DNA of 64,000 nucleotides from a virus. The position numbers were made by a program, and so were the translations under genes. The notes under the pieces were generated by a model that did no database searches, was not told where the DNA came from, and worked only from the letters and a program-made list of their open reading frames with translations. Where the stretch lies: positions 115,755-179,754 of IMG/VR virus record IMGVR_UViG_3300027759_000002; one strand, 5' to 3'. Positions 1-11,330 of this stretch are shown here, in pieces; positions within the stretch are counted from its first letter, which is position 1, and each line of letters starts with the position of its first letter.

Positions 1-2
1 GT

Positions 3-794
3 GTTGGTAAAACCACAATTGCAAAGGCTCTCTGTGAAGAAGTCGGTTGTGATTACATTATGATTAACGGTTCAGATGAATCAGGTATTGATGTTCTACG
101 GAACAAAATCAAGAACTATGCATCATCTATGTCCTTGTCAGGCGGCCGCAAGGTTGTCATCATTGACGAAGCAGACTATCTAAATCCAAATTCAACTCAA
201 CCTGCGCTGCGTGGTGCTATCGAGGAGTTCTCATCCAACTGTTCATTCATCTTCACATGTAACTTTAAGAACAGAATCATTGACCCGATTCATTCACGTT
301 GTACCGTTATTGACTTTAAAATCAATGGTAGTAAACAGAAGATGGCTGCAGGATTCTTTAAACGTGTTGAATGGATTTTAGAACAAGAAGGTGTTACATA
401 CGATAAGCAAGTGGTCGCTGCCGTTATCACCAAACATTTCCCTGATAACCGCCGTGTTTTGAACGAACTACAACGTTATAGTGTTAGTGGTACAATCGAC
501 AAAGGCATCTTGGCCTCGGTTTCTGATGTACAGATGAGTGAACTGGTGTCTTCTATTATGAACAAGGACTTCGCTTCTTGTCGAAAATGGACTACAAACA
601 ACCTCGACAACGATATCACCAGAATCTTTAGAAACATCTATGATTCATTGTATGAGAAGTTGAAACCCAACTCTGTACCACAAATGGTACTAATTTTGGC
701 TAAGTATCAATATCAGTCAGCCTTTGTTGCAGACCACGAAATCAATTTGATTGCTTGCCTTACAGAACTGATGGTTGAATGTGAATTCAAATGA
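3..794 (+). CDS. gp44: Clamp loader large subunit (T4 gp44-like), 5' truncated by the window edge
   Basis: Open frame from nt 3 reads VGKTTIAKAL (Walker A end), then VIIDEADYL (Walker B) and SRC; RFC-like. Confidence 0.95.
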   Translation, partial: VGKTTIAKALCEEVGCDYIMINGSDESGIDVLRNKIKNYASSMSLSGGRKVVIIDEADYLNPNSTQPALRGAIEEFSSNCSFIFTCNFKNRIIDPIHSRCTVIDFKINGSKQKMAAGFFKRVEWILEQEGVTYDKQVVAAVITKHFPDNRRVLNELQRYSVSGTIDKGILASVSDVQMSELVSSIMNKDFASCRKWTTNNLDNDITRIFRNIYDSLYEKLKPNSVPQMVLILAKYQYQSAFVADHEINLIACLTELMVECEFK

Positions 795-1180
795 GTCCGT
801 TCGACTATGCCGATTACATCCTGAGAAAGAAGGTGCCGGATGGTGAATTGGACTACAAAGATTATGCACCTTTCCTAATCAATAGGTCTCTCTCCAACCA
901 CTTAGATTGTGTCTTGTATGTCAATGACATGAACTTGTGGCCAGGTATTGATAAAGACATGCAATACCAGTATCTTCTAAATAGTATCAGGCCTATGAAA
1001 CGTAAATTCGTTCCGTGGCAGAAGGCCGATTCTGATAAGGATATTGAGTGTGTGAAGACCTATTTTGGTTACTCTAATGCCAAGGCCAAAGAGGCCCTAC
1101 GTATTCTTACTGATGAACAAATCGCTGATATAAAAACAAAAATAGATACAGGCGGAGTGAAGAATAATGATAGACATTAA
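791..1180 (+). CDS. gp62: Clamp loader small subunit (gp62-like)
   Basis: Sits between gp44 and regA; Y.PFLINRSLS and YFGYSN.KAKEAL.IL motifs. Confidence 0.9.
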   Translation: MSPFDYADYILRKKVPDGELDYKDYAPFLINRSLSNHLDCVLYVNDMNLWPGIDKDMQYQYLLNSIRPMKRKFVPWQKADSDKDIECVKTYFGYSNAKAKEALRILTDEQIADIKTKIDTGGVKNNDRH

Positions 1181-1574
1181 AGACCTAGTTGAAGTGACAT
1201 TGGATGACAAAGATGATTTTTTAAAGGTACGTGAGACACTGACCCGTATTGGTGTCGCCTCCAAGAAAGACCAAACATTATACCAATCTTGCCACATACT
1301 CCACAAACGTGGTCAATACTACGTGGTACATTTCAAAGAACTATTTGCCTTAGATGGCAAAACAACAGACATTACCGAAAACGACCTATCTCGTAGGAAT
1401 GCCATTGCAAACCTATTGGAAGATTGGGGCTTGGTAAAGTTAGTCAATAAAAAACAAACCGAGGTGCCACCACCTATTTTCTTGTCACAGATTAAAATAT
1501 TGTCACACAAGGAAAAGAGCGACTGGCAACTTACACCAAAATATAATATTGGTAAGAAACCAAATAGTGGTTGA
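1167..1574 (+). CDS. regA: Translational repressor RegA
   Basis: DDFLKVRETLTRIG, LYQSCHILHKRG.YY.VHFKELFALDG. Confidence 0.95.
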   Translation: MIDIKDLVEVTLDDKDDFLKVRETLTRIGVASKKDQTLYQSCHILHKRGQYYVVHFKELFALDGKTTDITENDLSRRNAIANLLEDWGLVKLVNKKQTEVPPPIFLSQIKILSHKEKSDWQLTPKYNIGKKPNSG

Positions 1575-1599
1575 CAACTGATATAAATATTGTTATAAT
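1571..1599 (+). promoter_or_regulatory. Sigma70 promoter with a T4 late promoter nested in its spacer
   Basis: TTGACA(1571)-17 nt-TATAAT(1594); TATAAATA at 1582-1589. Confidence 0.85.
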
Positions 1600-1604
1600 A
1601 GTCC

Positions 1605-1796
1605 CATCGGGATGGGAAAAGTCAAAGGTGGAACCTGGTCCTACCGAGACTTAATACTCCAGGAAAAAGGTGCTCCACCTACCTTAGGAGCGTTAGTAAA
1701 ACGGGCAGACGTAATTGCCGCTGGATAACGTAACCAGTACCTTAAGCGATACGCCTTCGGGGTATCAATTTTTAATCTCGCTTTCAGGAGAAACTT
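1605..1796 (+). promoter_or_regulatory. Structured 5' leader of hsp20 ending in a ROSE-like SD-sequestering hairpin
   Basis: Several hairpins; TCTCGCT-TTC-AGGAGA (1776-1791) pairs the SD with a bulged G. Confidence 0.6.
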
Positions 1797-2240
1797 ATGA
1801 CTAATCTTAAAGATTATTTCGGTGTCGATTTCGGCAAAATTCAACCATTCACCGTGGGATTTGATGACACAATGTCAATCATGCGTGAAGCTGCAGCGGC
1901 TGCATCTAAAGCCGTATCTTATCCTCCATACAACATCAAACAGGTAACTGCAAACAAGTACGTCATTGAAATGGCTGTTGCTGGTTTCGCAAAGTCTGAT
2001 ATTGAGATGACTTTGGAAGGAAACAAACTTGTAATTAAAGCTGCATCTAAAGACGCAGAGGAAGAAGAATATTTGTACAAAGGCATTGCCAACCGTGCAT
2101 TTGAACGTACCTTCACTCTCGCAGACAAAGTTGAAATCAAAGATGCAGAGTTGATGAATGGTATGTTGAAGATTTGGCTAGAAAACATGGTCAAAGCACA
2201 AGATGCTATTAAGAAAATTTCAATCAAGGCCAAAGAATGA
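1797..2240 (+). CDS. hsp20: Small heat shock protein (Hsp20/IbpA family)
   Basis: YPPYNI, EMAVAGF, YLYKGIANRAFERTFTL, A.L.NGML.I. Confidence 0.95.
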   Translation: MTNLKDYFGVDFGKIQPFTVGFDDTMSIMREAAAAASKAVSYPPYNIKQVTANKYVIEMAVAGFAKSDIEMTLEGNKLVIKAASKDAEEEEYLYKGIANRAFERTFTLADKVEIKDAELMNGMLKIWLENMVKAQDAIKKISIKAKE

Positions 2241-2320
2241 AAAAATTTCTACAAAGTATACTTGAAGCCATACAGGCCATCAAAGAACACAGGTCAGACC
2301 ATACCTTAAAAGGTAGATAA
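2237..2320 (+). CDS. Possible 27-aa peptide MKKFLQSILEAIQAIKEHRSDHTLKGR
   Basis: ATGA overlap with the hsp20 stop; ends before a terminator. Confidence 0.45.
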   Translation: MKKFLQSILEAIQAIKEHRSDHTLKGR

Positions 2321-2324
2321 TCAT

Positions 2325-2351
2325 AAAGGGTCTTGACAGACCCTTTTTTTT
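2325..2351 (+). terminator. Intrinsic terminator whose loop is the -35 box of the next promoter
   Basis: AAAGGGTC-TTGACA-GACCC-T run; TATAAT at 2356 gives 17 nt spacing. Confidence 0.8.
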
Positions 2352-2370
2352 GTGTTATAATATAGACATT

Positions 2371-2553
2371 ATGAAAACTGAAAAACAATACATCAAAAAA
2401 GTTCGTGTTAAAACCACGTTGGAGAATTACTACGTTTGTTCACCAGAGACTAAAGAGATTGATGGTGTTCAATTTGTTTATGTAATTAAGAACATTGGTA
2501 TTAGGGAAACACCTAAATTAATGCGAAAAGAATCATTAGAATATATCAGATAA
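2371..2553 (+). CDS. Hypothetical protein
   Basis: ORF downstream of the promoter; ATG 2371 preferred because the 2350 start lies inside the promoter. Confidence 0.6.
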   Translation: MKTEKQYIKKVRVKTTLENYYVCSPETKEIDGVQFVYVIKNIGIRETPKLMRKESLEYIR

Positions 2554-2628
2554 GGGCTGATAGCTTAATGGTAAAGCAGTGAACTCATAATTCATTGAGT
2601 CTAGGTTCAATTCCTAGTCAGCCCACCA
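2554..2628 (+). tRNA. tRNA-Ile2(CAT): tRNA with CAT anticodon, probably Ile2 (lysidine type)
   Basis: Cloverleaf GGGCTGA/TCAGCCC-ACCA, loop CTCATAA; resembles the bacterial Ile2 scaffold; Met not excluded. Confidence 0.85.
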
Positions 2629-2641
2629 ATTTTAAAAAAAT

Positions 2642-3157
2642 ATGAAAACAAAATTTCGTAATGCATATATGAAAGTGGCCGAGACATTTGCACAATTGTC
2701 CTCGGCTCGCAGACTTCATGTTGGTGCTATTGTAGTCAAAGATGATAGAATCATTTCAATTGGTTACAATGGTATGCCTTCAGGTTGGGATAATGATTGT
2801 GAAGATAAAGAATACATGAGTGTTGATGCTGGCGGTTGGTTGGATTTGAATGAGATTGAAGAACGCTGGCCAAACAAAGAACAGATGCTTCCAAAGGAAG
2901 ACAATCGTTGGAGAAGATATGCACTCAAAACTAAACCAGAGGTTTTACATGCTGAAACTAATGCGATTGCAAAACTTGCTAAGTCTACCGAATCTGGTAT
3001 GGGTGCTACTATGTTTGTTACCCACGCTCCATGTTTGGACTGTGCCAAACTTATCTACCAAAGTGGTATTAGCAGTGTTCTATATCGGAACTCTTATCGG
3101 AGTGATGATGGTATCGAATTCCTACAAAAAGCATCAGTCTGGGTAGAAAAAATCTAA
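2642..3157 (+). CDS. cd: dCMP deaminase
   Basis: VGAIVV, GYNG, HAE.NAI, THAPCLDCAK zinc motifs. Confidence 0.95.
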   Translation: MKTKFRNAYMKVAETFAQLSSARRLHVGAIVVKDDRIISIGYNGMPSGWDNDCEDKEYMSVDAGGWLDLNEIEERWPNKEQMLPKEDNRWRRYALKTKPEVLHAETNAIAKLAKSTESGMGATMFVTHAPCLDCAKLIYQSGISSVLYRNSYRSDDGIEFLQKASVWVEKI

Positions 3158-3201
3158 TTCTCCTAAATAACTTGGGGTAATTGTGCCCTTAGGAGACCAG
3201 G

Positions 3202-3708
3202 ATGATTATTCGTGTGGTTAACTGTCCAGACAAAGATTTTAAGCCCTTTGTTGAAAGAGCTGCCCAATTCTTCGCTAAAGAATTAATACCTAATACACGA
3301 ATAAGAAATAATTGTATAACAGAAATTAAATTTTGTACCAAAATAACTGAATATGGTTTTGCTAGTATTGAAGATTATAATACAAGAAAACTACCTAGAG
3401 AATTCCTAATAGAAATAAATCCAAATATCGGATCCAGAAGAATACTGGAAACCTTGGCGCATGAAATGGTTCATGTGAAACAATATATTGATGGTGAAAC
3501 GAATGATGAGTTGACCAGATGGCGAGGTAAGAAGGTTGATCCAGATAAGATTGATTATTGGATTCAGCCATGGGAGATAGATGCTTACGGCCGTGAACCT
3601 GGACTTATTACAAAGTTTGCTGTATCAGAAAATCTATGGGAAATACTTGATGATTTTGTTGATCCATCTGGTCCAATAAATTATAACCCGATTGCCTGGA
3701 AAAAATAA
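3202..3708 (+). CDS. Putative zinc metallopeptidase-fold protein
   Basis: TLAHEMVHVKQY (HExxH) and a downstream PWEIDA. Confidence 0.7.
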   Translation: MIIRVVNCPDKDFKPFVERAAQFFAKELIPNTRIRNNCITEIKFCTKITEYGFASIEDYNTRKLPREFLIEINPNIGSRRILETLAHEMVHVKQYIDGETNDELTRWRGKKVDPDKIDYWIQPWEIDAYGREPGLITKFAVSENLWEILDDFVDPSGPINYNPIAWKK

Positions 3709-3711
3709 AAT

Positions 3712-4245
3712 ATGTCACATCCAACTCAACAAGAGTTTGTAAAAAAGTTATCATCGGATTTTCCACAAAACTTCAATAACATAAAGATGTTGGAAGTTGG
3801 TAGTTTAAATATCAACGGTACCATGAAGATACATTTTAATGAATGTGAGTATGTTGGTGTTGACGTTGATGCAGGAAAAGATGTTGACTTGGTTTGTGAA
3901 GGCCAGCTTGTCGACCATGCAGATGGCACATACGACACCACAGGTTCTTGTAATTGTTTCGAACACAATCCACATTGGATAGAAACATTTCAAAACATGT
4001 ATCGTATGACCAAAAAAGATGGATTAGTTTTTATCGTAGTACCAACAACAGGTTATCCTGAACATGGTACATCTAATAAAGCACCAAATGATAGTCCTTT
4101 AACCATTGCAAAAGGTTGGGAATATTACAGTAATCTTACAGAAGAAGATTTTTGTAAAAACTTTGATATGGATAGTATGTTTCATACTTACAAGTTTGAA
4201 ACAAATAATACTCCCGAATTATTTTTTTACGGATTTAAAAAATAA
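3712..4245 (+). CDS. Class I SAM-dependent methyltransferase
   Basis: MLEVGS, YVGVD...GKDVD, FEH, MTKKDG. Confidence 0.8.
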   Translation: MSHPTQQEFVKKLSSDFPQNFNNIKMLEVGSLNINGTMKIHFNECEYVGVDVDAGKDVDLVCEGQLVDHADGTYDTTGSCNCFEHNPHWIETFQNMYRMTKKDGLVFIVVPTTGYPEHGTSNKAPNDSPLTIAKGWEYYSNLTEEDFCKNFDMDSMFHTYKFETNNTPELFFYGFKK

Positions 4246-4258
4246 TTTTAAAAACCGC

Positions 4259-4287
4259 TTGCCAAGACATAAAAGTTCCTATATAAT
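4259..4287 (+). promoter_or_regulatory. Sigma70 promoter for the leader-peptide transcript
   Basis: TTGCCA(4259)-17 nt-TATAAT(4282); predicted +1 is about the A of ATG 4294 (leaderless mRNA). Confidence 0.8.
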
Positions 4288-4293
4288 AACACT

Positions 4294-4404
4294 ATGAAAA
4301 ATTTTAAACATAAACCCTTTACGTTACAGTCCGAGTATCGCACAATTAATTGTGGTGATAGCTCATGGGCGCCGACTGGGTTTTGTGTAAAGAGAGAGAA
4401 CTAA
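4294..4404 (+). CDS. Putative attenuator leader peptide (36 aa, all 20 amino acids)
   Basis: MKNFKHKPFTLQSEYRTINCGDSSWAPTGFCVKREN; its 3' part pairs with the downstream terminator stem. Confidence 0.75.
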   Translation: MKNFKHKPFTLQSEYRTINCGDSSWAPTGFCVKREN

Positions 4405-4434
4405 TACATAAGTTCTAAAAAAGACTTCAAACAC

Positions 4435-4470
4435 AAGACCCTAGACCTAAAAAATCTAGGGTTTTTTGTT
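4435..4470 (+). terminator. Intrinsic terminator (attenuator 3:4 hairpin)
   Basis: AAGACCCTAGA-9 nt-TCTAGGGTTTTTTG. Confidence 0.85.
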
Positions 4471-4523
4471 TGTTGTTTCAATACAACACAGTGGTTGCCA
4501 GGTCATCGAATCTGGTATACAAT
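4471..4523 (+). promoter_or_regulatory. tRNA operon promoter P1 with upstream palindrome
   Basis: TGTTGT-N6-ACAACA (4471-4488); TTGCCA(4495)-17 nt-TACAAT(4518). Confidence 0.75.
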
Positions 4524-4529
4524 ACACAC

Positions 4530-4546
4530 TGTTCTTTAAAAATTTG
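4530..4546 (+). promoter_or_regulatory. rrn-type boxA antitermination element
   Basis: TGTTCTTTAAAAATTTG versus E. coli rrn boxA TGCTCTTTAACAATTT; just after the promoter and repeated at 5055. Confidence 0.7.
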
Positions 4547-4557
4547 TCGTAGTTTAT

Positions 4558-4631
4558 TGGGGTATAGCATAGTGGTAGTGCTGCGGACTTTGAATCCGTA
4601 GGTCCTTGTTCGATTCAAGGTACCCCAGCCA
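4558..4631 (+). tRNA. tRNA-Gln: tRNA-Gln(TTG)
   Basis: Cloverleaf, loop CTTTGAA, encoded CCA. Confidence 0.95.
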
Positions 4632-4701
4632 TATAAAAACACATTAGAGATAAGCAGGAACTGGTTCGAAACGGGTCGCCTCGTTTAGTGTGTTTCTATA
4701 T
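4632..4701 (+). ncRNA. Candidate spacer ncRNA, copy 1
   Basis: ATATAAAAACACA...TGTGTTTCTATAT closing stem shared with 5359-5427. Confidence 0.5.
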
Positions 4702-4793
4702 GGAAGATGATGCAGCGGGGTTGGTCCTGCGACTGGCCTTGAAAACCAGGTTCTCAGAAATGGGATGGGGTTCGACTCCTCCGTCTTCCGCCA
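4702..4793 (+). tRNA. tRNA-Ser: tRNA-Ser(TGA)
   Basis: GGAAGAT/GTCTTCC-GCCA, loop CTTGAAA, long variable arm. Confidence 0.9.
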
Positions 4794-4798
4794 AACAT

Positions 4799-4886
4799 AG
4801 AAGGTTGCCCGAGCGGTTAAGGGAGCAGTTTGCTAAACTGTCGTTGCGAAAGCGGCGCATCGGTTCGAATCCGATACCTTCTGCCA
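4799..4886 (+). tRNA. tRNA-Ser: tRNA-Ser(GCT)
   Basis: AGAAGGT/ACCTTCT-GCCA, loop TTGCTAA, long variable arm. Confidence 0.95.
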
Positions 4887-4892
4887 AAACAT

Positions 4893-4968
4893 GTAGGTGT
4901 GACCCGAAAGGCTAGGGAGCAGATTGCAAATCTGTTACATGCAGGTTCGATTCCTGTCACCTACTCCA
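4893..4968 (+). tRNA. tRNA-Cys: tRNA-Cys(GCA)
   Basis: GTAGGTG/CACCTAC-TCCA (U73), loop TTGCAAA. Confidence 0.95.
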
Positions 4969-4972
4969 AACA

Positions 4973-5025
4973 TGTTGTAGGAATACAACAGTCTGGTTGA
5001 CAATGATTCATGGTTGTGTTATACT
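4973..5025 (+). promoter_or_regulatory. tRNA operon promoter P2 with upstream palindrome
   Basis: TGTTGT-N6-ACAACA (4973-4990); TTGACA(4997)-17 nt-TATACT(5020). Confidence 0.8.
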
Positions 5026-5054
5026 TCATCTATGAATTGAGAAATCAATCAAAC

Positions 5055-5070
5055 GTTCTTTAAAAATTTG
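5055..5070 (+). promoter_or_regulatory. Second rrn-type boxA
   Basis: GTTCTTTAAAAATTTG, identical to 4531-4546. Confidence 0.7.
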
Positions 5071-5081
5071 TTGTAGTTAAT

Positions 5082-5156
5082 GCTCCGTTCGTCTATCGGT
5101 TAGGACGCTGCCCTTTCAAGGCGGAAAGACCAGTTCGATTCTGGTACGGAGTACCA
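5082..5156 (+). tRNA. tRNA-Glu: tRNA-Glu(TTC)
   Basis: Cloverleaf, loop CTTTCAA, CCA. Confidence 0.95.
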
Positions 5157-5280
5157 TTTGTTTTGCTGACGTAAGCGCTTGAGTAAACGTCAACTCTAAC
5201 TAACTATGTGTATAAACGGTAATGCTGCAGCTAAATCCGTTGAGCATAGCAAATAGTGCGTCAGCAAAACAAATGGTAGT
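5157..5280 (+). ncRNA. Candidate structured ncRNA closed by a 22-bp stem
   Basis: 5152-5173 is complementary to 5257-5278; internal hairpins. Confidence 0.6.
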
Positions 5281-5283
5281 TAT

Positions 5284-5358
5284 GGGGGTATAACTTAACG
5301 GCTAAAGTAGTAGGCTTTTAACCTATTAATCAGAGTTCGATTCTCTGTACCCCTACCA
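5284..5358 (+). tRNA. tRNA-Lys: tRNA-Lys(TTT)
   Basis: Cloverleaf, loop CTTTTAA, CCA. Confidence 0.95.
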
Positions 5359-5427
5359 TATAAAAACACACTTCCGACAGCAGGCGGAACTCAGGATAAG
5401 TCCATTCGGGTGAGTGTGTTTCTATAT
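5359..5427 (+). ncRNA. Candidate spacer ncRNA, copy 2
   Basis: Same terminal stem as 4632-4701 with a different interior. Confidence 0.5.
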
Positions 5428-5520
5428 GGAGGCATTGTAGATATGGCGTGTTCTGCAGCGGACTGTAAATCCGTTCCCCCGTGGTAAACAATGTTGGTTC
5501 GACTCCAACTGCCTCCACCA
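5428..5520 (+). tRNA. tRNA-Tyr: tRNA-Tyr(GTA)
   Basis: GGAGGCA/TGCCTCC-ACCA, loop CTGTAAA, long variable arm, enlarged D loop. Confidence 0.9.
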
Positions 5521-5712
5521 AATCCCGTTACTACTTCCGTTAAAGTAGCGTTTGATTAGCGATAGAGATCCGGTGGCAGAAAACCGTTAGCGAGAGAAAT
5601 CTCAGGCTCTGATAGGCAGTTCCCTCTGCACACAGACATTAGAATAAAAGGGATGGACAGAGTAACTTCTCAATTAAGGGCTTGTGTGGAAACAAGTAGC
5701 TTATCCTAATTT
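5521..5712 (+). ncRNA. Candidate ~190-nt pseudoknotted ncRNA
   Basis: No ORF; multiple hairpins; loop TCCCT (5621) can pair with AGGGA (5649). Confidence 0.5.
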
Positions 5713-5787
5713 GGTCTTAAAGTGTTCATGGACGCACATCAGCCTGTCACGCTGAAAGAAGGGGATCGTTACCCCTTAAGACCGCCA
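5713..5787 (+). tRNA. tRNA-Asp: tRNA-Asp(GTC)
   Basis: GGTCTTA/TAAGACC-GCCA, loop CTGTCAC, T loop ATCGTTA. Confidence 0.9.
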
Positions 5788-5812
5788 AATAATTGTTGTG
5801 AAGGAAAAGAAA

Positions 5813-6169
5813 ATGAATATAAACGATATGGTTGGAAAAGTATTCACATCGGTAACACAAGATGGTTATGAGATGGTATTTGCGAATGAAACTGAAAAAT
5901 TCAGATTCTTCCATTATCAAGATTGTTGCGAAACAGTTTACATTGAAAGCATTGTAGGTGAGTTATCGGATTTAGAAGGCGAAACACTTTTGATTGCTGA
6001 AGAAGTATCAGGTGAAATACCAGAACCTAAAGAAGATGAATACATTGAATCTCGCTCATGGACATTTTACAAATTTGCTACACGCAAAGGTTATGTTGAT
6101 GTTCGTTGGTTGGGAGAATCAAACGGTTACTATTCCGAATCAGTAGATTTAGAATACGAGTTAGTATAA
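5813..6169 (+). CDS. Hypothetical acidic phage protein
   Basis: ORF with SD AAGGA; H.QDCCE.V and RWLGESNGYYSE motifs familiar from phage hypotheticals. Confidence 0.75.
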   Translation: MNINDMVGKVFTSVTQDGYEMVFANETEKFRFFHYQDCCETVYIESIVGELSDLEGETLLIAEEVSGEIPEPKEDEYIESRSWTFYKFATRKGYVDVRWLGESNGYYSESVDLEYELV

Positions 6170-6176
6170 AGAATAT

Positions 6177-6251
6177 TCCAGAGTAGCACAGCGGTAGTGC
6201 AGTTGACTGTTAATCAATTGGTCGTAGGTTCGATCCCTGCCTCTGGAGCCA
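6177..6251 (+). tRNA. tRNA-Asn: tRNA-Asn(GTT)
   Basis: Cloverleaf, loop CTGTTAA, GCCA. Confidence 0.95.
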
Positions 6252-6465
6252 ATACGTTCCGCTTGGTTAGCGGATACTGTGACCCGCAGGATAAGAAGTG
6301 AGGTGACTCTCAAGGGTGGTAGTCTTTTTACCGAAAGGCCGCTGGCAATGCGTTAACGATCCTGGTCGGGAAGCGGGTGGAGGTTATGGGTGTATTCCCC
6401 TTGAAAAAGGACATGTTTACAACTATGATATAATTACCGCCGCAGGATGCAGAGCACTTAATTTC
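6252..6465 (+). ncRNA. Candidate ~210-nt GC-rich structured ncRNA
   Basis: CAGGAT/ATCCTG and ACCCGC/GCGGGT long-range stems, further hairpins, no ORF. Confidence 0.55.
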
Positions 6466-6539
6466 GCCCTATTAGTATAATGGCATTACACCTGTTTTGT
6501 AATCAGGTTACGGCAGTTCGATTCTGTCATGGGGCACCA
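6466..6539 (+). tRNA. tRNA-Thr: tRNA-Thr(TGT)
   Basis: Cloverleaf, loop TTTGTAA. Confidence 0.95.
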
Positions 6540-6545
6540 GTTTTT

Positions 6546-6621
6546 CTCTCTGAAGCGTTATCAGGTTGCGTACACGGTTTGGGGCCGTGTGGTCAAGGTT
6601 CGAATCCTTGCAGGGAGACCA
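6546..6621 (+). tRNA. tRNA-Pro: tRNA-Pro(TGG)
   Basis: CTCTCTG/CAGGGAG-ACCA, loop TTTGGGG. Confidence 0.9.
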
Positions 6622-6629
6622 GTTTTTTT

Positions 6630-6704
6630 GGGGGCAGCAGTGGGCTGCGGCGTTCCCTTGCAAGGATCGTGACTAGAAGGATTCGATTTCCTCGGCCTCC
6701 ACCA
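6630..6704 (+). tRNA. tRNA-Ala: tRNA-Ala(TGC), atypical fold
   Basis: G3:U70 acceptor pair, loop CTTGCAA, 4-nt D loop, bulged T stem. Confidence 0.8.
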
Positions 6705-6708
6705 ATTA

Positions 6709-6783
6709 GGTTCAGTAGCATAGTGGCAGTGCAGCATCTTCATACGGTGCGTTGTGTGAGTTCGATTCTCACCTGAACCACCA
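6709..6783 (+). tRNA. tRNA-Met: tRNA-Met(CAT), probably elongator
   Basis: GGTTCAG/CTGAACC-ACCA, loop TTCATAC. Confidence 0.85.
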
Positions 6784-6789
6784 AATTAT

Positions 6790-6864
6790 GGGCGATTAGT
6801 AAAATGAATATTACACAAGGCTACGAACCTTGAAGTGGGAGTTTGATTCTCTCATCGCCCTCCA
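6790..6864 (+). tRNA. tRNA-Arg: tRNA-Arg(ACG)
   Basis: Cloverleaf, loop CTACGAA. Confidence 0.9.
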
Positions 6865-6868
6865 AAAT

Positions 6869-6943
6869 GCCGAGGTAGCTCAGTGGTAGAGCAGCGTCTT
6901 GATAAGGCGTTGGCCAAGAGTTCAATTCTCTTTCTCGGTACCA
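6869..6943 (+). tRNA. tRNA-Ile: tRNA-Ile(GAT)
   Basis: Cloverleaf, loop TTGATAA. Confidence 0.95.
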
Positions 6944-6946
6944 AAT

Positions 6947-7020
6947 TTCTCGCTGGTGTAATGGCAGCATAGCGGTCTCCAAAACCGTTGGTTGGGGTTC
7001 GAGTCCCTAGCGGGATGCCA
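6947..7020 (+). tRNA. tRNA-Trp: tRNA-Trp(CCA)
   Basis: Cloverleaf, loop CTCCAAA, GCCA. Confidence 0.9.
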
Positions 7021-7041
7021 ATTTTAAAAAAGGTGATTAAT

Positions 7042-7527
7042 ATGAAAAATTTCAATATAGAAGAAGTCAGACAATACCTTGCAAATCAAGGTCCTGATAC
7101 CAAGGTTTATCTTGGTGCCGACTCTGAAAGAATCAGGGTAAATGGTGTTTGGTATGCTGACTATGCTCTAGCAGTTGTAGTTCATATTGATGGCCGACAT
7201 GGTTGTAAGATTTTCGGATATGTTCACCGTGAATTGGATTACGACCATAAGAAAAGTAAACCTGCTATGAGGTTGATGACTGAAGTTTATAAAGTTTCAG
7301 AATTGTTCCAATCATTAGCAGAAGTGTTGGAAGATTATCATGTTGAAGTTCATCTTGATTTAAATAAAGATGATATTCATGGTAGTTCATGTGTTGTTCA
7401 GCAAGCGATTGGTTATATCAAAGGTACATGTAATATGACACCAATGGTTAAACCAGATGCACCTGCTGCAAGTTTTTGTGCTGATAGATTGAAAAGAATC
7501 TTGGCAGACCAAGAAGCACTTCAATAA
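7042..7527 (+). CDS. RNase H-like YkuK/DUF458-family protein
   Basis: KVYLGADSE, RLMTEV, VEVHLDLN, SFCAD acidic catalytic-like residues; SD AGGTG. Confidence 0.75.
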   Translation: MKNFNIEEVRQYLANQGPDTKVYLGADSERIRVNGVWYADYALAVVVHIDGRHGCKIFGYVHRELDYDHKKSKPAMRLMTEVYKVSELFQSLAEVLEDYHVEVHLDLNKDDIHGSSCVVQQAIGYIKGTCNMTPMVKPDAPAASFCADRLKRILADQEALQ

Positions 7528-7530
7528 TAT

Positions 7531-7605
7531 GGAGAAATTAGTTTAGTGGTAAAACCACGGGTTGTGATTCCGTTATCACCAGTTCGATCCTGGTATTTCT
7601 CCCCA
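7531..7605 (+). tRNA. tRNA-His: tRNA-His(GTG)
   Basis: 8-bp acceptor with G-1:C73, loop TTGTGAT. Confidence 0.95.
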
Positions 7606-7610
7606 AATAT

Positions 7611-7685
7611 GCCCCGTTAGCTCAGTGGTAGAGCAGTGCTTTTACACGGCGAAGGTCGGCAGTTCGAAACTGTCACGGGGTACCA
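7611..7685 (+). tRNA. tRNA-Val: tRNA-Val(TAC)
   Basis: Cloverleaf, loop TTTACAC. Confidence 0.95.
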
Positions 7686-7689
7686 ACAT

Positions 7690-7765
7690 GCTGCTTTAGC
7701 TGATGTGGTCATAGCGGTGGTCTGAAGAACCATTGAAAGAGGTTCGATTCCTCTAGGCAGCACCA
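7690..7765 (+). tRNA. tRNA-Phe: tRNA-Phe(GAA)
   Basis: Cloverleaf, loop CTGAAGA. Confidence 0.95.
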
Positions 7766-7770
7766 AATAT

Positions 7771-7847
7771 GCCCAAGTGACGGAATAGGTATACGTACTT
7801 GATTCAAAATCAAGGTTATGTGGGCTCGAATCCCACCTTGGGTACCA
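7771..7847 (+). tRNA. tRNA-Leu: tRNA-Leu(CAA) with short variable loop
   Basis: Loop TTCAAAA; Leu-type D arm; variable region only about 5 nt. Confidence 0.9.
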
Positions 7848-7848
7848 T

Positions 7849-7922
7849 GCTCTTATAGGTAAATGGCATACCACATCCATGGTAAGGATGTATCCTAAGT
7901 TCGATTCTTAGTAGGAGCACCA
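7849..7922 (+). tRNA. tRNA-Thr: tRNA-Thr(GGT)
   Basis: ACATCC/GGATGT stem, loop ATGGTAA. Confidence 0.85.
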
Positions 7923-8119
7923 ACTTGTTTTAATGTTGTTAAGATAAATTCTTTTTCTTGTGTGATATATAATTCATCATCTTCAAAAGTTTTTATCTTA
8001 GTATCATATGATGGAACAAATTCAGAATCAACACAGTAGTAACCATTAGGTTCATATGTTTGTTGTGCATACAATCCGTAAAACATTTCTACTGTAGGTC
8101 TTTTTGAAGTTGGTATCAT
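7895..8119 (-). CDS. Hypothetical 74-aa protein antisense within the tRNA array
   Basis: ORF MIPTSKRPTVEMF...; late-promoter-like AATAAATA at 8125-8132 on the - strand. Confidence 0.55.
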   Translation of the reverse strand: MIPTSKRPTVEMFYGLYAQQTYEPNGYYCVDSEFVPSYDTKIKTFEDDELYITQEKEFILTTLKQVGAPTKNRT

Positions 8120-8132
8120 ATGAGTATTTATT

Positions 8133-8209
8133 GCCCCGGTGACGGAATTGGTATACGTGTTGGTCTTAGAAGCCAAATTTTGAGAGTTCGAGTCTCTCCT
8201 GGGGCACCA
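8133..8209 (+). tRNA. tRNA-Leu: tRNA-Leu(TAG) with short variable loop
   Basis: Loop CTTAGAA; variable region ATTTT. Confidence 0.9.
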
Positions 8210-8214
8210 AATTT

Positions 8215-8289
8215 CTGGCGTTAGTATAATGGATAATACAGTAGGCTTCTACCCTTCTAATGGGAGTTCGATTCTCTCACGCCGGACCA
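8215..8289 (+). tRNA. tRNA-Arg: tRNA-Arg(TCT)
   Basis: Cloverleaf, loop CTTCTAC. Confidence 0.9.
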
Positions 8290-8306
8290 TTTTTTAGGAG
8301 TTTATT

Positions 8307-8885
8307 ATGCCAGCAGTATTTTTAGTAAGTGACACACACTTTGGTCACGCTGGTGTGTGTAGATTTCTTCGTGATGACGGAACAAAACTTCGGCCATGGG
8401 ATAATCCCGATGAAATGGATGAAGAAATGATTAAGCGTTGGAACGAAACAGTCAGACCAAACGATAAAGTTTACCATCTTGGTGATGTTGTTATTAATCG
8501 TAAAGCAATGAATACTCTATATAGACTTAACGGTGATAAGGTTCTTATTCGTGGTAACCATGATATCTTCCGTGATGAGGAATACAGACAACACTTTCGT
8601 GAACTACGTGCTTATCATGTAATGAATGGAATGATCCTGTCACATATTCCAATTCATACGGAAAGTCTTGGTCGTTTCGGTGTAAACATCCATGGCCATT
8701 TACATTCCAATCGTGTTCAGATTCGTGGGTTCAATGGTAAACCAATGGGTATTGATAACAGATACCATTGTGTTTGTGTTGAACAAACAGATTTTAGACC
8801 GATTCTTTTTGAAGATGTTATCAAACGAATTAAAGAAGAAGGTGGTGAGGTCGGTTTCAAAAGTGGAAACGACCGTGCTATGTGA
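8307..8885 (+). CDS. Calcineurin-like metallophosphoesterase
   Basis: SDTHFGH, HLGDV, GNHD, SH.P, NIHGHLH. Confidence 0.9.
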   Translation: MPAVFLVSDTHFGHAGVCRFLRDDGTKLRPWDNPDEMDEEMIKRWNETVRPNDKVYHLGDVVINRKAMNTLYRLNGDKVLIRGNHDIFRDEEYRQHFRELRAYHVMNGMILSHIPIHTESLGRFGVNIHGHLHSNRVQIRGFNGKPMGIDNRYHCVCVEQTDFRPILFEDVIKRIKEEGGEVGFKSGNDRAM

Positions 8886-8886
8886 T

Positions 8887-8969
8887 GCGAGTATGGGGGA
8901 ATTGGTAGACCCATCAGACTTAAAATCTGCCGCCTCGGCGTACCGGTTCGACTCCGGTTACTCGTACCA
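8887..8969 (+). tRNA. tRNA-Leu: tRNA-Leu(TAA)
   Basis: Loop CTTAAAA, normal long variable arm. Confidence 0.95.
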
Positions 8970-8979
8970 AAAATAATGC

Positions 8980-9008
8980 TTGACTTCTTAATAAGAAGCC
9001 TATATAAT
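8980..9008 (+). promoter_or_regulatory. Sigma70 promoter for the Gly tRNAs and groES
   Basis: TTGACT-17 nt-TATAAT; spacer region holds the inverted repeat CTTCTTA-A-TAAGAAG. Confidence 0.75.
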
Positions 9009-9019
9009 ACACACATGAT

Positions 9020-9094
9020 GCGGGTATGGTGCTAGTGGTAACACAAGACCTTGCCAAGGTTTAGTTGTGAGTTCGATTCTCACTACCCGCTCCA
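9020..9094 (+). tRNA. tRNA-Gly: tRNA-Gly(GCC)
   Basis: GCGGGTA/TACCCGC-TCCA, loop TTGCCAA. Confidence 0.95.
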
Positions 9095-9116
9095 AGTTAA
9101 CTACAACAGATTTTAT

Positions 9117-9190
9117 GCGGGATTAGTTTAGTGGTAAAACAGTAGATTTCCAATCTCCGGTTGAGAGTTCGATTCTCTCATCCCGCTCCA
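9117..9190 (+). tRNA. tRNA-Gly: tRNA-Gly(TCC)
   Basis: GCGGGAT/ATCCCGC-TCCA, loop TTTCCAA. Confidence 0.95.
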
Positions 9191-9196
9191 TTTAAT

Positions 9197-9263
9197 GCGG
9201 TTTGTAATAGTACGATACAAGGTACCCCCTTGTGTTAACTGAGCAAAGCAGTAGACCGCTCCA
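9197..9263 (+). ncRNA. Non-canonical tRNA-Gly-like RNA (67 nt)
   Basis: GCGGTTT/AGACCGC-TCCA acceptor; three arms; no TTCG in the T loop and no GG in the D loop. Confidence 0.65.
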
Positions 9264-9276
9264 TTTTGAGGACACT

Positions 9277-9522
9277 ATGAATATTAAACCCTTGCATGAT
9301 AAAGTATTGATTGAACGTATTGAGAATGTCAAAGAGACCGCTTCAGGCATCATCCTAAAACATTCCGAAGATCCAGATAAAGCAAGAGTACTTGCAGTTG
9401 GTCCGGATGTTACAGAAGTCCAGGTCGGTGATGTGGTTCAACCAGACTGGGGTAAGGCCGCAGCAGTGCAAGATTATTTCGTGGTGAAGATTGAAGACAT
9501 AGCTTACATCTACGGAGAGTAA
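9277..9522 (+). CDS. groES: Co-chaperonin GroES
   Basis: IKPLHDKVLI, TASGIIL, VLAVGP, VQVGDVV. Confidence 0.9.
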   Translation: MNIKPLHDKVLIERIENVKETASGIILKHSEDPDKARVLAVGPDVTEVQVGDVVQPDWGKAAAVQDYFVVKIEDIAYIYGE

Positions 9523-9524
9523 AC

Positions 9525-9752
9525 ATGTCTGATGGTGGTAAAGGTTCTAGTCCAAGGCCGTTTAGTGTTTCACAGAAAACATTTGGTAATAACTACGACA
9601 ATATTTTTAGAAAAAAATCACCAAAAGAAATACAAGAAGACAAATACGAACAAGAAGAATTTGATAGAATTTTAGAAGAAAATCGTATGCGCCAAAAGGC
9701 TTTAGATGCCATGGTGGCAGAAAATCAAAGATTAGGTTTATACGACAACTAA
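9525..9752 (+). CDS. Hypothetical protein
   Basis: MSDGGKGSSPRPFSV N-terminus; SD GGAG. Confidence 0.7.
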   Translation: MSDGGKGSSPRPFSVSQKTFGNNYDNIFRKKSPKEIQEDKYEQEEFDRILEENRMRQKALDAMVAENQRLGLYDN

Positions 9753-9755
9753 TAT

Positions 9756-9828
9756 AGCGGGTTGGTGAAATGGTATCACAGTGGGCTCATAATCCTCAGT
9801 TCCGGTTCGACTCCGTGACCCGCAACCA
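9756..9828 (+). tRNA. tRNA-fMet: Initiator tRNA-fMet(CAT)
   Basis: 1:72 mismatch (A.A), GGG in the anticodon stem, loop CTCATAA. Confidence 0.85.
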
Positions 9829-9842
9829 TTAATCTTTATACA

Positions 9843-10130
9843 TCACGGCGATTCAATTTTATCTTTGCAAGAACGTGAATTGTTTACTGAAGTTGTATGT
9901 ATCAATGTAGAACCATTTCGTTTTACATTTGAACATTTATATTCACAGACTTGTAAATCTTTCGGTCCACTTTTTTCAGTAAAACTTCTTGTCAATTTAC
10001 AATAATCATTATTGTTAGTCGCTTTGGTGTATATGACAGCATCCGGCATCAAGTTTATATTGATGGTTGGATGAGTGACCATCAGTGTTACACTTGTGGT
10101 CAACAACGTAAATAAGAGTTTTTTATTCAT
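9843..10130 (-). CDS. Hypothetical secreted or membrane protein
   Basis: Hydrophobic N-terminus; four Cys. Confidence 0.65.
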   Translation of the reverse strand: MNKKLLFTLLTTSVTLMVTHPTININLMPDAVIYTKATNNNDYCKLTRSFTEKSGPKDLQVCEYKCSNVKRNGSTLIHTTSVNNSRSCKDKIESP

Positions 10131-10903
10131 CTTCCTACGTAAACTTTAGGCATTGATTCTTCCCTTCTTTTTTCTTCTGATTTAGGAAATAACCCATCAC
10201 CATATTGTGGATATTTCTGTTGTCTATCATATGCTACCCACATAAACACACCAGCCATAACAAAAATTATAATCACAATAGCAACGCCTGTAGCAAATTC
10301 ATCTCTGAGTTTTCTCATTCGTGCTAAACGGCGTTTATCTAATATCGCTTGTTGTTGCATTTGTTTGATAAGAAGAACCTTTTGTTCTTTACCCATCTCT
10401 TTCATCATTTCTTCGACTTCGGTATATAAAGCACCGAGCTCTGGAGGACTTTGATAAATCATCAACTCACGTAAATCAACTGACATTTGTTCAAGTTGTT
10501 TACGCATGAGTACACGTTGTAAGGCACGTTTACCTAATGATGCATCTCCGGTATAAACTTGTGTCTTAGCAATTTTTTCTTCTTCTTCAAAAACAGCCAT
10601 ACATTTATAAAAGTTATCATAGTATGTGCCTAGGTGTTCACCAATCTCTTGGTAGATGTTGGTAGTTTCTCCACCCTTTTTGTTTAGTTCAATTACACGA
10701 TTTTTTTCCGTAATGAAGGCATTTCTTTGTGCTACACTTGCAGGTTTTTCTGGTGGATGGAGCTTTTTGAACTGGTCGTCAAGATCCTTGAGGACGTCCT
10801 TGACTTCCCCAGCTGCACCTTTAATATCTTTGTATAGTTTACATCCGGCTTTGACTGCCGAAACCGCACCATTTGCGAGGGCAAAGAGTGTGAATGGATC
10901 CAT
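10127..10903 (-). CDS. Hypothetical coiled-coil membrane protein
   Basis: 258 aa, one C-terminal TM segment; ATGA overlap with the downstream ORF. Confidence 0.75.
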   Translation of the reverse strand: MDPFTLFALANGAVSAVKAGCKLYKDIKGAAGEVKDVLKDLDDQFKKLHPPEKPASVAQRNAFITEKNRVIELNKKGGETTNIYQEIGEHLGTYYDNFYKCMAVFEEEEKIAKTQVYTGDASLGKRALQRVLMRKQLEQMSVDLRELMIYQSPPELGALYTEVEEMMKEMGKEQKVLLIKQMQQQAILDKRRLARMRKLRDEFATGVAIVIIIFVMAGVFMWVAYDRQQKYPQYGDGLFPKSEEKRREESMPKVYVGR

Positions 10904-10928
10904 TTCTTTTTATACCATTTTTTTTACT

Positions 10929-10956
10929 TGACATTATAACAAAAAAATGATATAAT
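10929..10956 (+). promoter_or_regulatory. Sigma70 promoter upstream of the DNA polymerase cluster
   Basis: TTGACA...TATAAT. Confidence 0.7.
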
Positions 10957-11000
10957 CTACGTTCAGGTCACACTATATAATTATTTAGGATAGGATTAAC

Positions 11001-11330
11001 ATGAAAATATATGCAATGAAATTAGTAACTGGTGAAGAACTTATTGGTGAAGTTGAAACGGAGAATGAAAATATTTTCATTAATGAAAATGAAATGGTGA
11101 TTAAGAATCCATTAGGAATTGCCATTGTACGTGGTAAAGATGGTCAACCTAACGTAGGTTTTGCGCCATTTCCAATCCATGCAGAACAAAAATCAGACTC
11201 TACTATTGCCTTAAAACGTGAACATATTGTATACTACTACGTTCCAGCAGAAGATTTTGTCAAAAACTATGACCAAATTTTCGGCACAGGCATTATTCTT
11301 CCAGGTCAACAACAAATCATTACAGGTTAA
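11001..11330 (+). CDS. Hypothetical protein (possible Sm-like fold)
   Basis: MKLVTGEELIG, VIKNPL; a gene type recalled upstream of gp43 in T4-like phages. Confidence 0.7.
   Translation: MKIYAMKLVTGEELIGEVETENENIFINENEMVIKNPLGIAIVRGKDGQPNVGFAPFPIHAEQKSDSTIALKREHIVYYYVPAEDFVKNYDQIFGTGIILPGQQQIITG

Follow-up and report, generated by a model that had tools for sequence, protein, structure and literature searches.

A conserved leader module ahead of a phage tRNA array: a candidate transcription attenuator with a predicted leaderless open reading frame

The locus and its relatives

We have analysed a 64,000-nucleotide (nt) stretch of viral DNA, here called the window, which comprises bases 115755-179754 of the 179,754-bp IMG/VR virus record IMGVR_UViG_3300027759_000002; the record has direct terminal repeats. 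The G+C content of the window is 37% and the family-B DNA polymerase of the phage is at most about 50% identical to the polymerases of T4-like cyanophages; the source is an uncultured T4-like phage. Our subject is a short plus-strand region (4259-4470) just ahead of an array of transfer RNA (tRNA) genes. It holds a promoter (P1), a 36-codon open reading frame (ORF), an intrinsic terminator and two segments that could pair with each other as an antiterminator (Table 1). We argue below that this is a real, conserved regulatory module, and probably a transcription attenuator of the trp type, mediated by the ribosome on a leaderless messenger RNA (mRNA), whose read-through would feed the tRNA array.

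Table 1. Features of the leader region and the start of the tRNA array, in window coordinates
Feature	Position	Strand	Description	Basis
Promoter P1	4259..4287	+	-35 TTGCCA (4259-4264), 17-nt spacer, -10 TATAAT (4282-4287)	match to sigma-70 consensus at 11 of 12 positions
Leader ORF	4294..4404	+	36 codons and TAA; all 20 amino acids; no Shine-Dalgarno sequence; predicted leaderless	frame and homolog conservation
Segment 1	4308..4317	+	codons 5-8; candidate anti-antiterminator strand pairing with segment 2	minimum free energy fold
Inner hairpin	4329..4370	+	part of 5' domain, codons 12-26; base TATCGC/GYGATA conserved in nucleotide sequence	fold, alignment
Segment 2	4375..4395	+	antiterminator 5' strand, codons 28-34; core 4378-4388 and a short second sub-helix	duplex
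Small hairpin	4397..4416	+	contains the stop codon TAA (4402-4404)	fold; analogous small hairpins in several subfamilies
Segment 3	4424..4445	+	antiterminator 3' strand, core 4431-4441; overlaps the terminator 5' arm	duplex
Intrinsic terminator	4435..4467	+	stem 4435-4445 / 4455-4465, 9-nt loop, T run to 4467	predicted from fold
Palindromic hairpin	4471..4488	+	TGTTGT-N6-ACAACA, between the T run and the -35 hexamer of P2	kept with variation in most subfamilies
Promoter P2	4495..4523	+	TTGCCA-17-TACAAT, downstream of the terminator	promoter pattern
boxA-like element	4530..4546	+	TGTTCTTTAAAAATTTG, ahead of the first tRNA	repeat match
tRNA-Gln(UUG)	4558..4631	+	first gene of the tRNA array, which extends to ~9828	tRNA calls (ARAGORN, Rfam)

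P1 is of the sigma-70 type and the ATG at 4294 is the seventh base after its -10 hexamer, the usual position for a transcription start. The first-pass annotation of this DNA had placed the expected +1 of the promoter on that ATG, and the sequence bears it out. Since an in-frame TAA lies at 4270-4272, the ORF can have no start further upstream. By direct count the ORF uses 29 different codons, against 24.9 +/- 2.1 expected for random codons with the usage of the phage (P(>=29) ~0.04), and its repeated residues mostly switch codon; on these points, as in all its statements about the sequence as such, the first-pass annotation was right.

Searches of the region with megablast and blastn against 50,697 phage records returned tRNA matches only, so that no cultured relative in that collection carries the leader. 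Homologous loci were instead fetched around close homologs of the DNA polymerase, and five of these loci hold the leader element; further homologs came from two exact DNA patterns spanning the -10/ATG junction, one of them a 19-mer. Among the 49 loci with the 19-mer, 44 are leader modules (all on IMG/VR contigs), with 35 distinct sequences that fall into about eight subfamilies. Four loci with the 19-mer (L226, L207, L224 and L225) were rejected as homologs, one being a chance match and three being other leaderless genes. The P1 hexamers are conserved among the homologs while the spacer between them is variable. The leader peptides of the subfamilies are 23-55% identical to that of the window, and their ORFs span 27-47 codons. 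Apart from the start Met and one Trp no residue comes close to being invariant, although two Cys are kept in many members.

A search of the public protein database, started from a 43-residue natural homolog as the first row, recovered the same subfamilies and no new distant ones. The public gene calls for this family (proteins P0001-P0020) mostly begin at upstream ATGs and thus translate the promoter, the -10 region being read as L-Y-N-N-T-M, with false “hypothetical proteins” of 51-72 residues as the result. This is a systematic annotation error, in which upstream-extended calls run through the leader promoter.

Predicted RNA structure and antiterminator

The RNA from 4294 to 4475 has a minimum free energy of -51.4 kcal/mol, against -32.5 +/- 3.8 for shuffled sequences (z = -4.9). 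Its fold has three parts: a 5' domain, in which 4308-4317 is paired with 4378-4388 around the inner hairpin, the small hairpin with the stop codon, and the terminator, the G+C-rich core of which is 4438-4445 / 4455-4462. A pattern scan lists this terminator on the minus strand only because its 9-nt plus-strand loop is over the limit of the scan; the fold shows it on the plus strand. The terminator hairpin and T run are kept in all homologs, with stem sequences that differ between subfamilies.

The pairing of segment 2 (4378-4388) with 4431-4441 at the 5' arm of the terminator, which the first-pass annotation had proposed as an antiterminator, is corroborated by comparison. In the window the extended 2:3 duplex reaches -18.7 kcal/mol, compared with -10.2 +/- 2.4 when the ORF is shuffled. 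In 35/35 sequences the strongest duplex that the ORF can form with the 5' flank of the terminator lies at the 3' end of the ORF (-12 to -23 kcal/mol), and in most subfamilies it is well beyond the shuffles. The subfamilies have found at least six sequence solutions to this pairing. With a fixed alignment, 84% of the 2:3 cells pair and there are 13 double changes versus 5.5 in shuffles, none of 500 of which reached the observed score. When ORF ends and terminator flanks were swapped between sequences, the mean fell from -18.2 kcal/mol for cognate pairs to -13.4 for swapped ones, a difference matched by 1/20000 permutations. Such comparisons indicate that segments 2 and 3 co-vary. The first-pass annotation had suggested looking in related phages for short ORFs ahead of tRNA genes and for co-varying 2:3 pairs, and both are found in this family.

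Two alignment-based approaches were set aside. When the 3' half was aligned with MAFFT and passed to RNAalifold, the outcome was an A-U helix without meaning, as the terminator arms are shifted between subfamilies, and the alignment-free duplex and swap tests were used instead. Pair counts were not taken from the full-length MAFFT alignment, because it puts segment 2 of subfamilies D and E in the wrong place.

The tRNA array and the second promoter

In every module with enough downstream DNA the T run is followed, after 5-130 nt, by a tRNA gene. In most lineages P2 lies in this interval, with a boxA-like element behind it. In the window the boxA-like block is repeated at ~5055-5081 before tRNA-Glu, each copy lying between a promoter and the first tRNA of its cluster. 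P2 was not found in subfamilies B and G, nor in the modules L178 and L236. The T run of subfamily B leads straight into a tRNA-Ser and that of L236 into a tRNA-Trp, while in G (L034) and L178 only the boxA-like element separates the terminator from the first tRNA. Given that these lineages have no P2, transcripts from P1 must pass the terminator there to reach the tRNAs. The palindrome at 4471-4488 could be an operator or a second hairpin.

The first-pass annotation had credited the array with tRNAs for all 20 amino acids. ARAGORN and Rfam call tRNAs for 19 of them; for alanine there is just a tRNA-Ala(UGC)-like cloverleaf (6630-6705, plus strand) that neither of them calls. It lies between tRNA-Pro and tRNA-Met and has an apparent G3-U70 pair; relatives have a normal tRNA-Ala in its place.

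Three other observations on these arrays deserve mention. A long-arm tRNA-Ser(UGA)-like gene at 4702-4795 (plus strand) has no ARAGORN call and is seen by Rfam, below threshold, as tRNA-Sec-like; in the L037 and L016 arrays ARAGORN does call a tRNA-Ser(tga), in second and in first place respectively. A 71-nt hairpin (4632-4702, plus strand; z = -2.6) fills the spacer that separates the Ser-like tRNA of the window from tRNA-Gln. Finally, L033:800-850 is a degenerate module in which the -10 region is followed directly by the terminator, the leader ORF being deleted and P2 and the tRNAs intact.

Maintenance of the leader reading frame

Except where it is cut by the end of a contig, the ORF is intact in all 44 homologs. 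An open frame 1 was seen in 16/16 representatives, with 1-7 stops in each of the other two frames over that span, and frame 1 stays open across all subfamilies despite the changes in length. An open frame of 36 codons is expected in only 7-17% of random sequences of leader composition. Moreover, the homolog sequences show that in every subfamily the core of segment 2 is followed within 0-21 nt by the stop codon, and the ATG at the predicted +1 is present in 4/5 of the homologs that were found independently of it. This pattern indicates that the leader ORF is maintained frame-specifically.

These data bear directly on the alternative that the ORF is incidental to a translation-independent RNA element, such as a structured small RNA, or a switch made of RNA alone that would resemble a riboswitch or respond to the speed of transcription or to nucleoside triphosphate levels; its 5' domain would control the antiterminator. 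The very stable fold noted above would suit such an element, as would the lack of a Shine-Dalgarno sequence, the coincidence of the conserved “EYR...D” residues with the base of the inner hairpin, and the nucleotide conservation in subfamily A, which exceeds that of the neighbouring protein gene and has no third-position bias. It would leave unexplained, however, why frame 1 alone stays open through lengths of 27-47 codons, why the ATG sits so regularly at the predicted +1 and why a stop codon always comes close behind segment 2. Furthermore, few loop or junction nucleotides are conserved across subfamilies, unlike in an aptamer, and no Rfam family, the T-box and known leaders included, matches inside 4259-4470 at E <= 1. 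We consider an RNA-only element rather unlikely.

The manner in which the peptide changes is not that of an ordinary protein. In the subfamily A leader the variable sites are spread over the three codon positions as 5/6/7, with eight amino-acid-changing codon columns versus four silent ones. In the control gene, a conserved 60-residue neighbour (2371-2553), they number 13/12/44 and the change is mostly silent. The leader peptide, on this comparison, evolves without protein-like constraint. One could still imagine a stand-alone early gene for a 36-residue microprotein, located beside the tRNA array by synteny alone. T4-like early regions are full of tiny genes, the promoter, ORF and terminator do make up a complete unit, P2 would independently drive the tRNAs in most lineages, and the Trp and often the two Cys are kept. 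Against this, the substitution pattern and the low identity between subfamilies are joined by the failure of the leader peptides to match any Pfam or PHROG family, and a microprotein would explain neither the conserved, co-varying complementarity between the ORF end and the terminator arm nor the lineages in which the terminator abuts the first tRNA with no promoter between them. An independent microprotein gene thus seems to us quite unlikely. Least probable of all is an insulator, in which the terminator would mainly block transcription from an upstream methyltransferase operon, with the tRNAs dependent on P2 and its boxA-like element and with P1 and the ORF as by-products or remnants of a duplicated promoter: P1 and P2 do share hexamers and an ACACT start region, and L033 keeps its terminator with the ORF lost, but 44 modules have retained P1 together with the ATG and the ORF, lineages without P2 still possess P1, ORF and terminator, and the antiterminator pairing would have no role.

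Translation of the leader would have to do without a Shine-Dalgarno sequence, and here the 60-residue control gene is instructive. Both in the window and in the 11 relatives whose match begins at the first residue, it starts 6-9 nt after a TATAAT and likewise has no Shine-Dalgarno sequence; leaderless or nearly leaderless mRNAs are therefore evidently translated in this phage-host system. The same promoter-ATG junction also heads longer ORFs in other contigs. Leaderless translation is thus plausible in this phage clade.

Two arrangements elsewhere in the window, both on the plus strand, are of interest in their own right. At 2325-2553 the loop of a terminator hairpin is the -35 hexamer (TTGACA) of the next promoter, which drives the 60-residue ORF; this ORF ends on the base before a tRNA-Met (2554), an arrangement kept in at least 11 relatives. 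From 53918 onward there is a candidate leaderless gene, with TTGCCA-17-TATAAT followed after 7 nt by the ATG of a 135-residue ORF.

A model for attenuation

The module has conserved sequence elements, a frame-specific ORF, segments 2 and 3 that co-vary and tRNA genes as its constant neighbours. It lends itself to a specific reading, from which we infer the transcription start, translation, termination efficiency and response to stalling. Host RNA polymerase would start at P1, on or beside the A of the ATG, to give a leaderless mRNA that a 70S ribosome could translate at once. A fast ribosome would reach the stop codon and cover, or just have left, segment 2 while segments 3 and 4 are being made, so that the terminator forms; if no ribosome has loaded, the 5' domain would fold and the terminator would likewise form. 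Either course would yield a transcript of ~170 nt ending at 4467. A ribosome stalled within about codons 2-24 would instead mask segment 1 and leave segment 2 free to pair with segment 3, sequestering the G+C-rich 5' arm of the terminator, and polymerase would then read through the boxA-like element into the tRNA genes. The output would be extra tRNA transcription under slow decoding, which in this phage would add to what P2 provides constitutively; where relatives lack P2, no way into the first tRNAs other than read-through is visible.

We applied a simple equilibrium model to 17 representatives, taking away the RNA that lies 5' of the stalled ribosome. For the window it predicts a terminator probability of 0.90 with no ribosome, 0.0-0.5 while the ribosome is stalled at any of codons 2-24 and 0.7-1.0 once it has reached codon 25. 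Subfamilies A, B, G and F2 and one member of E are predicted to behave likewise.

Several observations weigh against this interpretation. In 8/17 of the representatives (C, D, most of E, F1, L178 and L214) the modelled terminator wins wherever the ribosome sits, so kinetic trapping would be needed for them. The classical trp leader also relies on kinetic trapping, and there too the switch does not require an antiterminator that is stronger than the terminator at equilibrium. The pairing of segment 2 with 4308-4317, also put forward by the first-pass annotation, does appear in the minimum free energy folds of the window and of many homologs, but its energy is no better than that of shuffled sequences and the position of the partner is inconsistent between subfamilies. 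Two members (L008 and P0008) have no ATG at +1, and their start would need to be a GTG ~40 nt downstream. The module is also dispensable: all that L033 retains of it is the -10 region and the terminator, and in L039 a plain promoter stands without a leader. Finally, P2 lies 28 nt after the T run, so that attenuation in this genome could only add to a constitutive supply; the first-pass annotation had cautioned that a second promoter at 4495 would make the device a tuner rather than a gate, and for this genome the caution is correct.

On balance, we assign a probability of roughly 65% to a ribosome-mediated attenuator of the trp type acting on a leaderless mRNA and feeding read-through into the tRNA array. 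The trp/his logic invoked by the first-pass annotation is upheld in its conserved architecture, its frame-specific ORF and the co-variation of segments 2 and 3, while its 1:2 component is weak. If the attenuator operates as proposed, the phage probably makes more tRNA when ribosomes decode slowly.

Is the leader a sensor for every amino acid?

The presence of all 20 amino acids in a 36-codon ORF is hardly what would be anticipated. Its chance, which the first-pass annotation had recommended computing from the amino-acid frequencies of the genome, is 0.002; it is 0.0003 among 36-residue windows of the phage's own proteins and 0.003 in random sequences forced into the same RNA structure. Diversity as a by-product of the RNA structure was considered and rejected, because structure-forced random sequences contain 16.0 +/- 1.4 types of amino acid, the same as unstructured ones.

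The members of the family hold 16-20 types (mean ~19) against the 15-17 expected. When the residues shared with the window peptide are held fixed, every subfamily remains above the simulated mean, with single p values from 0.012 to 0.67. In subfamily E the His and Cys have moved to new positions, and the lineage with a reduced array of 13 tRNAs has the least diverse leader. The protection of singleton residues within a subfamily could be followed at only eight variable positions, which gives no power.

Other results speak against a sensor of every amino acid. Some members have only 16-17 types, and Fisher's combination with one value per subfamily gives p ~0.06. After allowing for shared ancestry the family-wide excess is thus marginal, much of it being inherited. 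The modelled sensing window (codons 2-24) holds 16 types, and Trp25, Ala26 and Val32 lie outside it; modelled stalls at these three would not antiterminate. Nor do the leader and array rosters match in detail. The idea that amino acids missing from a leader would correspond to tRNAs missing from its array found no support: the L034 leader has four Cys, yet no tRNA-Cys is called in its array; the L037 leader lacks Arg, yet its array has two tRNA-Arg genes; and the L016 leader lacks Ala, Gly and Gln, while its array lacks Ala, Gln and five others that are present in the leader.

The first-pass annotation had proposed that the leader senses a shortage of almost any charged tRNA. What stands of this is the improbable completeness of the window peptide; the marginal excess in the family, the restricted sensing window and the unmatched rosters leave the proposal suggestive and, for these reasons, plausible only. 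The leader is perhaps a “sampler” of the whole aminoacyl-tRNA pool, kept complete so that nearly any tRNA shortage or cleavage would delay the ribosome within the sensing window and raise transcription of an array able to make good the loss, though we regard this as doubtful. A general sensor of elongation speed needs no such compositional completeness. If it were a sampler, the tRNA supply would have a self-tuning loop and the phage a built-in answer to host anticodon nucleases.

Comparison with known systems

In the general view, promoter strength, growth-rate control and processing determine how far tRNA genes are transcribed; a direct dependence on the speed of decoding is, to our knowledge, no part of that view. 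In a full-text literature search we found no account of tRNA genes, whether of phages or of cells, being controlled by leader-peptide attenuation. If our reading is true, translation elongation would feed back on the supply of tRNA, and the loop would belong to a virus that has to retune host translation within minutes. It would also provide a regulatory logic for phage tRNA arrays, relevant to the debate over whether they serve codon usage or escape from tRNA-cleaving defences. Since P1, the leaderless ORF and the terminator are all of E. coli type, the idea is directly testable.

In its layout the module resembles the trpL, hisL, leuL, thrL and pheL leaders and the multivalent ilvGMEDA leader. 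As in these leaders of enterobacterial amino-acid operons, a short promoter-proximal ORF and an intrinsic terminator precede the regulated genes, the antiterminator has its 5' strand at or close to the end of the ORF and a 3' strand that overlaps the 5' arm of the terminator, and the stop codon is so placed that a finishing ribosome would block the antiterminator. Unlike the trp/his class, the leader has no tandem or clustered regulatory codons, almost every amino acid being present one to four times; its mRNA is predicted to be leaderless, with no Shine-Dalgarno sequence, its cargo is tRNAs instead of biosynthetic enzymes, it is borne by a phage, and its 1:2 pairing is weak. The Rfam families that went unmatched in the region include the Trp, His, Leu and Thr leaders.

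T-box riboswitches also couple tRNA charging to a choice between terminator and antiterminator, as is proposed here. They differ in binding uncharged tRNA directly, with no ORF and with specificity for a single tRNA, and in regulating synthetase and amino-acid genes; the T-box family has no match within 1-12000 of the window at E <= 1.

In mycobacteria, leaderless short ORFs rich in consecutive cysteine codons act as cysteine-responsive attenuators (bioRxiv 10.1101/834739), and these polycysteine ORFs are the nearest leaderless precedent. The phage leader, as predicted, would have in common with them a leaderless short ORF at the 5' end of a polycistronic transcript, serving as a decoding sensor that controls downstream expression. 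The mycobacterial ORFs have runs of Cys codons, sense one amino acid, and control protein-coding operons on a bacterial chromosome, whereas the window leader is maximally diverse and its cargo is a tRNA array. It has two separated Cys codons and no Cys run, and some of its homologs have no Cys at all.

Antibiotic-resistance attenuators, with a short upstream ORF and a terminator or antiterminator, respond to translation inhibitors and regulate resistance proteins. A literature search found no attenuator of this stalling type that regulates tRNA genes or lies in a phage. The phage module, as we propose it, would be like them in sensing a general slowing of elongation and converting it into read-through of a terminator. 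If this is true, the classical attenuator would be extended here to a non-specific, many-codon sensor.

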